This document shows, piece after piece, positions 25,642 to 63,234 of a stretch of 64,000 nt of DNA; position 1 is the first letter of the stretch; each line of letters begins with the position of its first letter. The notes beneath the pieces were generated by a model that saw nothing but the letters and a program-made list of their open reading frames with translations, was not told the DNA's origin and did no database searches. The position numbers were made by a program, and so were the translations under genes. The DNA is from Candidatus Parcubacteria bacterium (GTDB taxonomy: Bacteria; Patescibacteriota; Patescibacteriia; Buchananbacterales; SURF-54), in contig QZIX01000009.1 in NCBI GenBank assembly GCA_003599635.1, forward strand, positions 66,065-130,064, written 5' to 3'.

Positions 25642-25816
25642 ATTTTCTTAAATTTAGTAATTTTTGAATCTTAAAAAGCCCCGAAGGGACTTTTGATTTA
25701 TAGTTTTATTATAGAAAAGACAGTTTATTTTGTCAAGGGCTTGACGTCCGTTTATTTTTAATTATAGAGTGGGGGTAATGGTTTTTTGAATTTTGGGGGA
25801 CCAAGGAGGTAAGAGT

Positions 25817-35010: not shown

Positions 35011-35039
35011 TTGACAAGCCCACTTTTAATTAATACAAT
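35011..35039 (+). promoter_or_regulatory. Sigma-A-type promoter TTGACA-N17-TACAAT for hrcA-grpE
   Basis: TTGACAagcccacttttaattaaTACAAT lies immediately upstream of the CIRCE element. Confidence 0.55.
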
Positions 35040-35043
35040 AGAA

Positions 35044-35070
35044 TTAGCACTCATACGTTTTGAGTGCTAA
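35044..35070 (+). promoter_or_regulatory. CIRCE operator (HrcA binding site)
   Basis: Perfect TTAGCACTC-N9-GAGTGCTAA; 20 nt upstream of hrcA. Confidence 0.9.
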
Positions 35071-36968: not shown

Positions 36969-37005
36969 CTGTTTTTTACAATTTAAAATTGTCTTAAAAG
37001 AAGGC

Positions 37006-37278
37006 CTACTTGAGCAGTAGGCCGATGAAATGCCGAATGATATTGAATGACCACTTTCCATTTTCATGGTCGTAGAAAAGCGGTTTTTTTCTGGTGATTT
37101 GACTCAGTATAAAACAAAAAGTGTAGAGTCCCTCCAAAATAAGACCAAAGAAAATGAGTAAAAACTTATGGCAGTAAAGACCACCAACGATAAGAGCGAA
37201 AGGTAAGAATGAAAAAAAGACATATTCTTTGATGCTTAGACTGTTGAACACCGTAATGTTCTGATCTTTTTCAGTCAT
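37006..37278 (-). CDS. Hypothetical small membrane protein (90 aa)
   Basis: Two TM helices; a terminator hairpin overlaps its stop codon. Confidence 0.35.
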   Translation of the reverse strand: MTEKDQNITVFNSLSIKEYVFFSFLPFALIVGGLYCHKFLLIFFGLILEGLYTFCFILSQITRKKPLFYDHENGKWSFNIIRHFIGLLLK

Positions 37279-37304
37279 TTTTCACTCCTTTGATTAATGT
37301 ACAA

Positions 37305-37439
37305 TCAATTGTCGTTTGATGGAATTTCGTTTTGTTCTTTCAAATGTTCGGGGCATTTTTGGCAGCCATCTTTTTCATAAGCTCGGGTGCAGTTGCCGCA
37401 TGCTTGTTGATTTATAGCTTCTTGTTCGGGGTCATACAT
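37305..37439 (-). CDS. Small zinc-ribbon protein (44 aa; C-x2-C-x9-C-x2-C)
   Basis: MYDPEQEAINQQACGNCTRAYEKDGCQKCPEHLKEQNEIPSNDN; this ORF is below the cutoff of the supplied track; weak RBS aaagga. Confidence 0.35.
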   Translation of the reverse strand: MYDPEQEAINQQACGNCTRAYEKDGCQKCPEHLKEQNEIPSNDN

Positions 37440-37593
37440 ATTTTTTTCCTTTCTTTGAAATATCTATAACAGAATGTATGAATCGGTCAAGGGGATAAGT
37501 AAGAGAGTTCTGGATTTGCTTCAAAATTTTAATCAGTTGATGGTGGTTAAAAGCTACGCGATTATGACGATAATGCGATCGGTAATATAATAA

Positions 37594-37682
37594 AAAAGCC
37601 CGCCAGTTGGCTTTAATAATAAAATAATTTGCCAAAAGGCGGGTCGTTACGAAAGCCCTTATGCGTGCGGGAAAGAACAGTG
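37594..37682 (-). ncRNA. Candidate small RNA of about 90 nt, bounded by a consensus promoter and an intrinsic terminator
   Basis: Minus-strand TTGACT-N17-TATAAT at 37689-37717; terminator CCCGCCTTTTGGC...GCCAACTGGCGGG plus CTTTTTT at 37594-37643; no ORF inside; GC-rich island in AT-rich DNA. Confidence 0.35.
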
Positions 37683-37688
37683 TGAAGG

Positions 37689-37717
37689 ATTATATCCCGG
37701 CCCGAAGGGCAAGTCAA
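37689..37717 (-). promoter_or_regulatory. Consensus sigma-70 promoter (TTGACT-17-TATAAT) on the minus strand
   Basis: Exact -35/-10 hexamers with a 17-nt spacer. Confidence 0.5.
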
Positions 37718-37742
37718 AAAAATCAAAAAATTAGGCAATTTT

Positions 37743-37771
37743 AAAAAAAATCCGCTTGAAAACAGCGGATT
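37743..37771 (-). terminator. Intrinsic terminator (AATCCGCT-tgaaaac-AGCGGATT plus U8 on the minus strand)
   Basis: Stem followed on the minus strand by TTTTTTTT; lies 3' of the 37786-37950 ORF. Confidence 0.55.
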
Positions 37772-37785
37772 GGTGAAATTTTTTG

Positions 37786-37950
37786 TCACTTGTTGAATTT
37801 ATCAAGGTTATGGCAGATGAACCAGCAGCAGATTAAGAGGACAGCAAAAACTATTCTCCAGGCAAACGACAGTTTTTCGATGCCACTACTATTGATATTA
37901 AAAACTATCGTTGGCAGAACAAAAACAAAAACAATTACGGCTTTTAACAT
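37786..37950 (-). CDS. Hypothetical small membrane protein
   Basis: MLKAVIVFVFVLPTIV... hydrophobic; a terminator immediately follows. Confidence 0.3.
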   Translation of the reverse strand: MLKAVIVFVFVLPTIVFNINSSGIEKLSFAWRIVFAVLLICCWFICHNLDKFNK

Positions 37951-38241
37951 ATTTTTTCCCCCTAAAGAAATAGACTGAAAAAAAGAACATTTCAAACAGT
38001 TAATCAAATTCCGCGAAAGATGTCAAGATAAGTCTGAAATTGCCGCAAGATAAAGAAAGTTTTTTTATGATATTAAAAAAAAGAAAGGTTGAAAAAGAAA
38101 CCCGGAAAAAAAGTTAGCGCTTTTGAAGTTGTGAACTTTAAAATAAAAAAATGCCCCTCTCTGCGGCAGCTTATCCACCAGAAGCAATATTTTACCTCTG
38201 TTTAAATAATGGCAAGGCCCAGAGAGGGGAAAAACAAGATA

Positions 38242-38433
38242 CTATTTAAAGGTTCGATAAAGTATAACTGCGCTCCAAATGGCAAAAATTATGCCTGCGC
38301 TGCTAAATCCCAGGGTTGCCGCAAAATGACTGATATTTATTGAAGACATTACAACCCATGATAACCCAAACAAAAACATAATCTGCCAGAAGAGAAATGG
38401 TAATTTTCGCACTATCACTGACCCCCCCTTCAA
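38242..38433 (-). CDS. Hypothetical small membrane protein (63 aa)
   Basis: Two TM helices; the long-loop hairpin CCCCTCTCTG...CAGAGAGGGG plus T-run at 38145-38232 follows on the minus strand. Confidence 0.35.
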   Translation of the reverse strand: MKGGSVIVRKLPFLFWQIMFLFGLSWVVMSSINISHFAATLGFSSAGIIFAIWSAVILYRTFK

Positions 38434-38582
38434 TTTATTAGAATATTTAATATTAGCAAATTTTTAAAAAAAGTCAAGATGAAATTAAATAATTCCGGTT
38501 TAGAGTTTTTTCCTGTTAATCTGAATGAAAGCTATAAGATTTTTACCTTGATGCTGTTTAAAATAAAAATCGCCGTAAAAAA

Positions 38583-38819
38583 CTAATTTTTACGGCGAAA
38601 TGTCTTGGACAATGAATCCTTTATTTTCCAGAACACAAAAGCTCCAAGAGACACAATAGACATGAAAGGAACTGCGAAATATTCTGCTGTTTCCCGAGTT
38701 GAAAATCGCGTCATGGCAAAGGCCAAAGCTATGATGAATGCCAGAAGCAGACAGAAGACAAATGCTTCAGCCAGTTTCCATAAACAGAATCTTTCCGACA
38801 TGTTCTTTACTTTATCCAT
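38583..38819 (-). CDS. Hypothetical small membrane protein (78 aa)
   Basis: Two TM helices; a perfect 11-bp hairpin (CGCCGTAAAAA/TTTTTACGGCG) plus T-run at 38560-38597 overlaps the stop. Confidence 0.35.
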   Translation of the reverse strand: MDKVKNMSERFCLWKLAEAFVFCLLLAFIIALAFAMTRFSTRETAEYFAVPFMSIVSLGAFVFWKIKDSLSKTFRRKN

Positions 38820-38874
38820 ACTAACCCTCCTTCTGTTATAAATATGTTAACTATTTGTTTAAGATAAGTCAAAA

Positions 38875-39297
38875 ATGAAATTAAATAACCCGGCAGACTT
38901 AATCGTTACTAACAATAAAAAGCAGATACTTTTGGTTAAAAGAGCAAAAACGCAGAAAGAATTTCCCGACTGTTGGTCTTTTCCCGGCGGCGGTTGTGAA
39001 ACGGGAGAAACGGCGGAAGAAGCAATCAAAAGGGAGATAAAAGAGGAACTGAATTGTAAAATAAAGAAATTGCAATATTTTAAATCATATTATTATAAGG
39101 GAAAAGGTTATCATTCGCGGGTGCTGTATTTTTACGGTACAATCTCAGGTAAAATAAAGTTGCAGGAAAAAGAATTGTCAGATTTTAAATGGTTTGAATT
39201 AAATAATGATTTATTGAAGTTGAAGCTGGCATATGAGCAAGAAGAAGTTGTGAAAGATTTTATGAAAGCAGTAAGTGATAAGTTGGTAAGCAGCTAA
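38875..39297 (+). CDS. NUDIX hydrolase (MutT-like)
   Basis: NUDIX box GGGCETGETAEEAIKREIKEELN. Confidence 0.75.
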   Translation: MKLNNPADLIVTNNKKQILLVKRAKTQKEFPDCWSFPGGGCETGETAEEAIKREIKEELNCKIKKLQYFKSYYYKGKGYHSRVLYFYGTISGKIKLQEKELSDFKWFELNNDLLKLKLAYEQEEVVKDFMKAVSDKLVSS

Positions 39298-40803: not shown

Positions 40804-40887
40804 GTGTCATCCTGAGAGAAGCGAAGGATCCCGAGATTCTTCGTCACTTCGTTCCTCAGAATGACATATGAGATCCTAAATCCAGTT
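40804..40887. repeat. GTCATYCTGAR-family palindromic element (GTGTCATCCTGAGAGAAGCGAAGGATC ... CTCAGAATGACAT ... GTTCAGGACGAC)
   Basis: 11-bp inverted termini with one mismatch; forms the 3' flank of the cassette, upstream of dnaK. Confidence 0.6.
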
Positions 40888-41036
40888 CAGGACGACAAAA
40901 AAGTTTGGAATTTAGGTTTTGGAATTTGTTTAGAAATTAGGATTTAGGATTTGGAAATTTCATGCATAGAATTAACAATAAAAAATTTAATATAATCAAA
41001 CTAATAATCAATTAAACAATTAACTAAAAAAATATT

Positions 41037-43186: not shown

Positions 43187-43480
43187 TTAATGGGTAGGAT
43201 TTCTTGATATCAGCAAAGTCCATTGATTCGTCCACTCCTTTTTTACAGAAGACCAGAAATCTACGTTCTTTGTTTTTCTCCTAAATGGGTATAGTATTGT
43301 TGCTATCAATATTTCAGTGGCAAAAAAGGGCAAAAATGTGATCATTGCGATAATGGAGCAGATATACCTCCAGCCATGAAAACCCGAATATTCTGAAAGA
43401 TAAAGCGAGGTGATAGTGCTGGCTACAATAAAAACAACAGTTAGCAGAAAGAGAAAAAAAACTCTTACCATAATATCCAT
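43187..43480 (-). CDS. Hypothetical small membrane protein (97 aa)
   Basis: Three TM helices and its own terminator. Confidence 0.4.
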   Translation of the reverse strand: MDIMVRVFFLFLLTVVFIVASTITSLYLSEYSGFHGWRYICSIIAMITFLPFFATEILIATILYPFRRKTKNVDFWSSVKKEWTNQWTLLISRNPTH

Positions 43481-43567
43481 AATTCGTAACCTCCTAATTG
43501 TCCAAGAACGATTAATTTGATATGATGTTATTTTATAGAGAATTGTTCGATTGTCAAGAAAAATTTT

Positions 43568-44665
43568 ATGTCAAAAGATTACTACAACATATTAGGTATC
43601 GGCAAAAACGCTTCGCCGGATGAAATAAAAAAAGCCTACAGGAAACTGGCGCATCAGTATCATCCCGACAAGCAGGGGGGCGATGAGCAGAAGTTCAAGG
43701 AAATCAATGAGGCCTATCAGGTTTTGGGCAATCCTGAAAAACGCCAGCAATATGATCAATACGGCCAGACTTTTGAACAGGCCAAGCGCCAGGGCGGTTT
43801 TTCCGGTTTTGAAGGTTTCAGGGATTTTTCAGATTTCGCCTCTGCGTTTCGCGGCAACGGCTCGGCGCAGGATTTTGATTTCGGCGGTTTCGGCGATATT
43901 TTCGGCGATTTGTTCGGGTTTCAGCGCGGCACCGGCGGACGAAAAAGAGGGGGAGATTTGCAGACTTCCATTAACATAACTTTTAAAGAAGCGGTTTTCG
44001 GCGCCGAAAAAATCATTAACATAACCAAGGACAATGTCTGCACCAGGTGCAGCGGCACCGGGGCCGAACCGGGAAGCAAAGTCGTGACCTGCCCGACCTG
44101 CCACGGCCGAGGCAATGTTGTTCGCAGCGTGGCTTTTGGTATCCAGATGTCTTCTGTTTGTCCGACCTGCGGAGGAGCCGGCAAAAAAGCGGAAAAGAAT
44201 TGTTCCAAATGCCGCGGCAGGGGAGTTGTTCGTGAAACGTCCGAACTTAAAATAAAAGTTCCTGCCGGCATAGATGACGGCCAGTCCATAAAATTATCCG
44301 GACAGGGTCAGGCAGGTTCATCGGGCGGACGCGCCGGTGATTTATATGTTGTCGTCAATGTGGCAAAAGACGCTGAATTTGAACGCGAGGGTTTTGATAT
44401 TTTAAGCCGGCGGGAAATTTCCGTTTCACAGGCGGCTTTGGGAGACAAGATTCTTGTTGATACCCTGGATGGCCGGATAAAATTAAAAATTCCCGCCGGG
44501 ACACAATCCGGCAAAGTTTTTGTGTTACGCGGGCTGGGAATACCGCACCTTCACGGCCGCGGCCGGGGAAATCATTTAGTTGAGATAAACGTGAAAACCC
44601 CAACTAATTTATCACGCCGGCAAAAGGAACTCCTTGAAGAACTGCGAAAGGAAGACGGCCGGTAA
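43568..44665 (+). CDS. dnaJ: Molecular chaperone DnaJ
   Basis: J domain with HPD (YHPDK), G/F-rich linker, four CxxCxGxG zinc-finger repeats. Confidence 0.9.
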   Translation: MSKDYYNILGIGKNASPDEIKKAYRKLAHQYHPDKQGGDEQKFKEINEAYQVLGNPEKRQQYDQYGQTFEQAKRQGGFSGFEGFRDFSDFASAFRGNGSAQDFDFGGFGDIFGDLFGFQRGTGGRKRGGDLQTSINITFKEAVFGAEKIINITKDNVCTRCSGTGAEPGSKVVTCPTCHGRGNVVRSVAFGIQMSSVCPTCGGAGKKAEKNCSKCRGRGVVRETSELKIKVPAGIDDGQSIKLSGQGQAGSSGGRAGDLYVVVNVAKDAEFEREGFDILSRREISVSQAALGDKILVDTLDGRIKLKIPAGTQSGKVFVLRGLGIPHLHGRGRGNHLVEINVKTPTNLSRRQKELLEELRKEDGR

Positions 44666-63163: not shown

Positions 63164-63234
63164 CGGCCCGTTCGTCTAGTGGCAGGACGCATGGTTCTCA
63201 TCCATGCAACGGGAGTTCGATTCTCCCACGGGCT
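63164..63234 (+). tRNA. tRNA-Glu (anticodon CUC)
   Basis: Cloverleaf by hand: acceptor GGCCCGT/ACGGGCT, D-arm GTCT-AGTGGCA-GGAC, anticodon stem CATGG/CCATG with loop TTCTCAT, T-arm GGGAG-TTCGATT-CTCCC; TTCGTCTAG.GGC.AGGAC is typical of tRNA-Glu; no encoded CCA. Confidence 0.8.

Follow-up and report, generated by a model that had tools for sequence, protein, structure and literature searches.

The 64-kb window, by which is meant the whole stretch of DNA that was analysed, contains a heat-shock gene cluster in the order hrcA, grpE, hsp20 and dnaK, with an island of about 4 kb between the last two genes. The sequence derives from a Parcubacteria/Patescibacteria metagenome-assembled genome (MAG), as part of the 162-kb contig Ga0104756_1000020 (JGI 3300007352; NCBI locus tags with the prefix C4569_), on which the candidate described below occupies positions of about 44318-44441. 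Five co-oriented units are found on the minus strand of this island: genes for proteins of 78, 63 and 54 amino acids (aa), a candidate small-RNA gene, and an operon made up of a 44-aa and a 90-aa gene. All five have a TTGAC -35 box as well as a hairpin and U-run resembling a terminator, and the candidate was the only unit of this promoter-terminator design that lacked an open reading frame (ORF). After these units, on the plus strand, there were a NUDIX gene, a weakly methyltransferase-like gene (Pfam E-value 4.5e-4, at the family cut-off) and an unannotated ORF of 231 aa. A tandem-repeat scan detected no CRISPR- or TIGR-like array.

The upstream neighbor of the candidate is the 54-aa gene (37786-37950, minus strand), which encodes a two-helix membrane protein, has the Shine-Dalgarno (SD) sequence GGGGG and ends in a strong terminator, a hairpin with U8 (37749-37771, minus strand). 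The public JGI gene call at this position is on the plus strand, an ORF of 53 aa (37817-37978) that overlaps the 54-aa minus-strand ORF; with its SD sequence, two hydrophobic helices and strong terminator, the minus-strand ORF looks like the real gene. The downstream neighbors, also on the minus strand, are the 44-aa Cys-rich ORF (37305-37439) and the 90-aa membrane protein (37006-37278, with a terminator at 37003-37023), which form an operon. A promoter-like sequence, TTGACC (37490-37485)-N16-TATAGA (37468-37463), ends 23 nt before the ATG of this operon. The distance from the -10 box to the start was similarly short, at about 15-30 nt, in the 78-aa and 63-aa units and about 50 nt in the 54-aa unit.

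Small membrane-protein genes (44, 54, 63, 78, 90, and 97 aa) flank dnaK at 37006-38819 and at 43187-43480 on the minus strand. All of them had their own TTGAC promoter except the 90-aa gene, which is in the operon with the 44-aa gene, and every unit ended in a hairpin and U-run. A motif of about 20 nt, TTATTTAATTTCATYTTGACTT, which spans the -35 box together with preceding bases, was common to the 78-aa and 63-aa units (38872-38888 and 38476-38492) and may be the site of a shared regulator or the product of promoter duplication. Upstream of hrcA (35011-35070, plus strand) was the promoter TTGACA-17-TACAAT followed by a perfect CIRCE element, TTAGCACTC-N9-GAGTGCTAA (35044-35070), indicating that classical control of heat shock by HrcA and CIRCE has been kept in this genome from the candidate phyla radiation (CPR). 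The region upstream of dnaK showed no CIRCE element.

The exact TTGACT-N17-TATAAT promoter that the first-pass annotation placed on the minus strand was present at 37717-37689. It consists of the -35 hexamer TTGACT (37712-37717), with an A/T-rich stretch just 5' of it (37718-37745), a spacer of 17 nt (37695-37711) that holds GCCCTTCGGGC (37710-37700), and the -10 hexamer TATAAT (37689-37694). Eleven of the 12 hexamer positions match the sigma-70 consensus. The spacer has an unusual base composition, with 12 of its 17 positions G or C (71%) compared to 32% for intergenic DNA. Standard sigma-70 geometry predicts a transcription start at A37683 or A37681 (37681-37683, minus strand), 6-8 nt past the -10 box.

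The pattern TTGACN-N17-TATAAT occurred twice in the 64-kb window, where 0.05 copies are expected, and two copies were not reached in any of 100 shuffles. The second copy (25708-25736, minus strand) is immediately upstream of secE-nusG, which indicates that promoters of this kind are in use by the organism. Since the secE-nusG and hrcA promoters are both canonical, the organism appears to use sigma-70 promoters, and near-perfect matches are expected to mark real and strong ones. The secE-nusG promoter, TTGACA-N17-TATAAT, matches the consensus at 12 of 12 positions, and in the same region (25665-25736, minus strand) a leader hairpin, GUCCCUUCGGGGC with U5, is found about 10 nt past the start (-10.9 kcal/mol, z -3.6); this hairpin may be an attenuator or a 5' stabilizer. 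The sequence CCCTTCGGG had only two copies in the window, one beside each of the two exact TTGACN-N17-TATAAT promoters.

A scan of the window for transcription units, defined as a promoter matching at least 10 of 12 positions with a hairpin and T-run 25-260 nt downstream, identified the candidate as the sole intergenic promoter-terminator pair whose signals neither enclose a gene nor immediately precede one. Among the pairs with a promoter of at least 11/12, its terminator also had the lowest energy. One other 11/12 promoter, at 43557 on the minus strand, proved to drive the gene of the 97-aa membrane protein. On the opposite strand, a promoter-like ATGACG-N16-TATAAT (10/12; 37564-37591, plus strand) would give a transcript antisense to the candidate. 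This site lacks a good terminator downstream on the plus strand and is probably a chance occurrence in AT-rich DNA.

The terminator hairpin (37599-37643, minus strand) has two stems, CCCGCC/GGCGGG and UUGGC/GCCAA, separated by a 2x2 internal loop and capped by an AU-rich apical loop of 19 nt. Read in order, it runs CCCGCC-UU-UUGGC, the AU loop, and GCCAA-CU-GGCGGG, and is followed by a C (37598) and a U6 tract (37592-37597) at or near the predicted 3' end. Its folding energy was -19.8 kcal/mol compared to -9.3 ± 2.5 for shuffled sequences (z -4.24), none of the 200 shuffles was as good, and the stem bases had pairing probabilities above 0.95. A standard terminator scan returned only a weaker local hairpin, because the 19-nt loop is atypical; such a loop is also atypical for an efficient terminator and counts against the small-RNA reading. 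A strong terminator had previously been placed about 90 nt downstream of the promoter. The hairpin and U6 tract are real, but the hairpin begins about 41 nt past the predicted start, and it is the 3' end that lies at about 90 nt. Another terminator-like hairpin with a very large interior follows the 63-aa gene at about 38150-38232 on the minus strand, where CCCCUCUCUG and CAGAGAGGGG are separated by an insert of about 55 nt and followed by U7.

The predicted transcript is about 90 nt long, begins at about 37683 on the minus strand with ACACUGUUCUUUCCCGCACGCAUAAGGGCUUUCGUAACGA, and continues into the terminator hairpin. Its 5' region (37644-37683, minus strand) is pyrimidine-rich and mostly unpaired, and is a putative seed or interaction region. 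The first 44 nt (37640-37683) had a minimum free energy of -3.7 kcal/mol and were less structured than shuffled sequence (z +1.28). Probabilities of being unpaired in the 5' region were mostly 0.4-1.0, with G26-G28 mostly paired and nucleotides 6-9 partly so. Considered together with the z-score of the whole predicted RNA (-1.83), this describes an RNA whose 5' half is unstructured and which ends in a terminator, rather than a compactly folded molecule. The several short internal helices proposed in the first-pass annotation were therefore not borne out, as none was significant. Both of its examples, 'UCGUUACGA' and 'GCCC-GAA-GGGC', are plus-strand readings, for which the RNA strand has UCGUAACGA and GCCCUUCGGGC. 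UCGUAACGA can form at best a 3-bp stem with a triloop, and GCCCUUCGGGC falls within the promoter spacer (37710-37700), which precedes the start, so it is not part of the proposed RNA. The locus had also been called a GC-rich island. This holds in that the transcript is above intergenic DNA in GC content (44% versus 32%), but the enrichment is modest, as coding DNA has 41%. The 44% GC of the transcript in an AT-rich genome is consistent with maintained stems.

The predicted transcript contained neither ATG nor GTG, and no ORF in it is preceded by an SD sequence. Its sole start codon, a TTG at 37635, is within the hairpin and has no SD sequence, in agreement with the earlier claim that no ORF lies between the two signals. 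The ORFs of 58 and 67 aa that were called mechanically extend across promoter sequence, a poly-U tract and a terminator and have junk-like translations. A pseudogene remnant was considered and rejected, because six-frame translation revealed no relic of a reading frame. At the level of sequence only, the locus thus has the spacing and hexamers of a sigma-70 promoter (17±1 bp, TTGACA-like and TATAAT-like), the GC-rich hairpin followed by a U-tract of a Rho-independent terminator, and the make-up of an independent non-coding transcription unit; the statistics given above support the original description of it in those terms. A discrete short RNA is probably made from this locus, though with no great confidence.

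The first-pass annotation had also concluded that the candidate is not a 5' UTR, given that it sits between terminated genes. This conclusion does not follow from terminated neighbors, because the co-oriented 44-aa/90-aa operon is encoded beyond the terminator, with its ATG 155 nt away, and because, in the same genome, the consensus promoter of secE-nusG has a terminator-like leader hairpin behind it. The candidate could be the 5' leader or attenuator of this operon, with the strong promoter serving the operon and the hairpin and U6 tract acting as a regulated or partial terminator that sets read-through. It shares with intrinsic-terminator attenuators and leaders a promoter, a short terminated RNA, a co-oriented operon and a mutually exclusive hairpin: nucleotides 20-53 of the nascent RNA can form a hairpin of -11.1 kcal/mol that sequesters the left arm of the terminator, an antiterminator-like geometry. 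However, this alternative hairpin was not above chance (z -1.55; 12 of 200 shuffles), and the terminator is favored over it by about 9 kcal/mol. The 5' region differs from known leaders in having no aptamer-like or sensor-like structure, leader peptide, T-box or protein-binding repeat, and no cis-regulatory family of Rfam was matched, even at E ≤ 10. The operon also has a promoter-like site of its own. The -10 box of this site, TATAGA, is without the conserved final T, which favors the leader reading, but the separation between its TTGACC -35 box and the ATG is as short as in the neighboring units. A leader function is therefore considered unlikely.

At the gathering threshold, Rfam 15 identified only a tRNA-Glu (at 63165) in the whole window. 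When matches with E ≤ 10 were allowed over 37350-37950, none was found on the RNA strand within the candidate transcript. A weak match to the rimP-leader family (17 bits, E 4.2) ended in the -35 box, and the sole remaining overlap was a 13-bit match on the plus strand; other weak matches nearby fell on the terminator of the neighboring gene. The candidate had earlier gone unmatched by eye to 6S, SRP, tmRNA or a riboswitch class, and the Rfam search likewise assigned it to no family.

Searches for homologs with blastn and nhmmer in 80 Hsp20-anchored Patescibacteria loci from GTDB genomes returned only AT-rich noise, and the best non-self match of a single-sequence covariance model in the window and 85 Patescibacteria loci (796 kb) had an E-value of 0.42. 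A scan for the pattern of GC blocks, with variable linkers, was made in a metagenome collection that excludes the source contig of the candidate. All 40 matches were in contigs of 58-76% GC, showed no further similarity and were rejected. No match was found in scans of viral contigs or in phages and plasmids by blastn, and within the window there was no similarity longer than 12 nt that would point to a paralog. The closest available relatives had 71-78% Hsp20 identity and none had the island; in these relatives hsp20 was followed by a GalT-family gene (and then by dnaK on the longest contig), or the contig was too short. The flanking genes were also without relatives: the 90-aa and 44-aa proteins matched only themselves among 5.8 billion proteins, and the 54-aa protein had no credible relative, with one dubious match among 1.84 billion representatives. 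For this reason the lack of homologs of the candidate says little either way.

These observations bear on the possibility that the locus is a relic or a neutral by-product, in which a cassette lost its ORF or a rearrangement brought a promoter and a terminator together, so that an RNA is perhaps made and has no function. The island is a series of tandem cassettes of one design, and the three proteins beside the candidate lack credible relatives. Between hsp20 and dnaK, relatives have either some other gene or none at all, which indicates that the region turns over fast. For the candidate itself, searches found neither conservation nor a target, and the terminator was its one significant structure. 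Against this, decaying, AT-biased intergenic DNA would not be expected to retain intact GC-rich stems or a promoter with 11 of 12 consensus matches, and the candidate had neither residual similarity to the UTR or ORF of any neighboring cassette nor a remnant frame in any of the six translations. A functionless origin is rated as unlikely and is, with the leader reading, one of two serious rivals of the small-RNA proposal.

The position of the candidate beside several very small membrane-protein genes, each unit with a promoter and terminator, recalls type I antitoxins such as IstR-1/tisB and SR4/bsrG, in which a small RNA gene adjoins the gene of a very small hydrophobic protein. An antitoxin-like RNA could control an adjacent protein of this kind, for example the two-helix 54-aa protein upstream, and by eye, UUCUUUCCC of the 5' region is able to form a duplex with GGGAAAAAAU over the SD sequence of the 54-aa gene (9 pairs, one mismatch). 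Unlike the type I antitoxins, the candidate is transcribed in tandem with its neighbors, not antisense, convergent or divergent to them, and it has neither antisense overlap nor extended complementarity: no complementarity to other sequence in the window was longer than 12 nt, whereas at least about 18 nt or an antisense overlap would be expected of an antitoxin. The predicted duplex with the initiation region of the 54-aa gene was not better than those of shuffled RNA (fraction 0.29), and the fractions for the other neighbors were 0.17-0.75. None of the neighboring proteins matched a Pfam family. An antitoxin role is accordingly very unlikely. More generally, the duplexes predicted between the candidate and the translation-initiation regions of the 64-kb window, including those of the five neighboring genes, were no better than those of shuffled RNA.

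An imperfect inverted repeat, GCCCTT-CGGGC-CGGGA / TCCCG-CACGCAT-AAGGGC (37650-37710, minus strand), lies on either side of the -10 box and predicted start, with its left arm in the spacer and its right arm at 37667-37650. The z-score of this repeat was -1.35 as RNA and -2.36 as single-stranded DNA, which is statistically weak and not clearly above chance. The GC-rich inverted repeats of the locus (GCCCTT..CGGGA / TCCCG..AAGGGC and the 13-nt arms of the 'terminator') could act at the DNA level, as a site of protein binding or recombination. The first of them spans the promoter core, with the z-score of -2.36 as single-stranded DNA, and the promoter spacer is unusually GC-rich, both of which fit such a role. 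However, the window has just one copy of the element, the hsp20-dnaK island showed no gene for a recombinase or of a mobile element, the z-score of the first repeat at the RNA level is insignificant, and transcription accounts better for the U-tract and the promoter hexamers. A function in DNA alone is thus most improbable.

Trans-acting base-pairing small RNAs have the same arrangement, an unpaired 5' region and then a terminator hairpin, which makes antisense pairing the most likely mechanism for this RNA. Under this proposal, the near-consensus sigma-70 promoter would fire at about 37683 to give a free-standing non-coding RNA of about 90 nt, the first 40 or so nucleotides would stay unpaired, the Rho-independent terminator (a GC-rich hairpin of 11 bp with a U6 tract) would release the RNA, and the 5' region or the large AU-rich terminator loop would pair with one or more mRNAs. 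The candidate resembles trans-encoded base-pairing RNAs of the RyhB, Spot 42 and RsaE type in its sigma-70 promoter, its length of about 90 nt, the absence of an ORF, and its unstructured 5' part followed by a terminal GC-rich hairpin with a U-tract. Like them, it also has a pyrimidine-rich stretch containing UCCC, which could contact Shine-Dalgarno sequences. It differs from them in having no sequence or structure similarity in Rfam and no target found, in the 19-nt loop of its terminator, and in its CPR host. Chaperones of the Hfq or ProQ type are not known from CPR bacteria, which counts against this reading. That the candidate is a lineage-specific, functional, trans-acting base-pairing RNA, with an unpaired 5' region and a terminator, is a plausible reading held tentatively and somewhat short of probable.

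Small RNAs that act through the terminator loop are described in one report (PMC11979758). The large hairpin of the candidate, with its accessible apical loop, is similar to those described there and could be an interaction site, but the likeness is purely architectural and the loop of the candidate is low-complexity AU sequence.

A full-text literature search found no paper describing any small RNA in CPR/Patescibacteria. If transcribed and functional, the candidate would be a rare case of riboregulation in the CPR, where genomes are very small and recognizable regulators few, and would give a handle on the island of unique small membrane proteins beside the chaperone genes. A more far-reaching version of this proposal, in which a strongly expressed regulatory RNA of a CPR/Parcubacteria episymbiont in the heat-shock cluster (hrcA-grpE-hsp20-...-dnaK) controls the surrounding unique small membrane proteins without classical chaperones, is quite unlikely; were it true, this RNA would be one of the first riboregulators to be reported from the CPR. 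The candidate is more simply viewed as a plausible but unproven small-RNA prediction of the ordinary kind, made from sequence as very many others are, and would represent a lineage-specific addition to a well-known kind of RNA. Its main value is as a well-defined target for checking against metatranscriptomes.

A further GC-rich element in this part of the window was seen upstream of dnaK, at about 40807-40953 on the plus strand. This palindromic element, GTCATCCTGAGAGAAGCGAAGGATC...CTTCGTCACTTCGTTCCTCAGAATGAC, looks like a repeat family that occurs widely in CPR and other metagenomic genomes, and a 25-nt tandem repeat, GTTTAGAAATTAGGATTTAGAATTT, comes after it in two copies.
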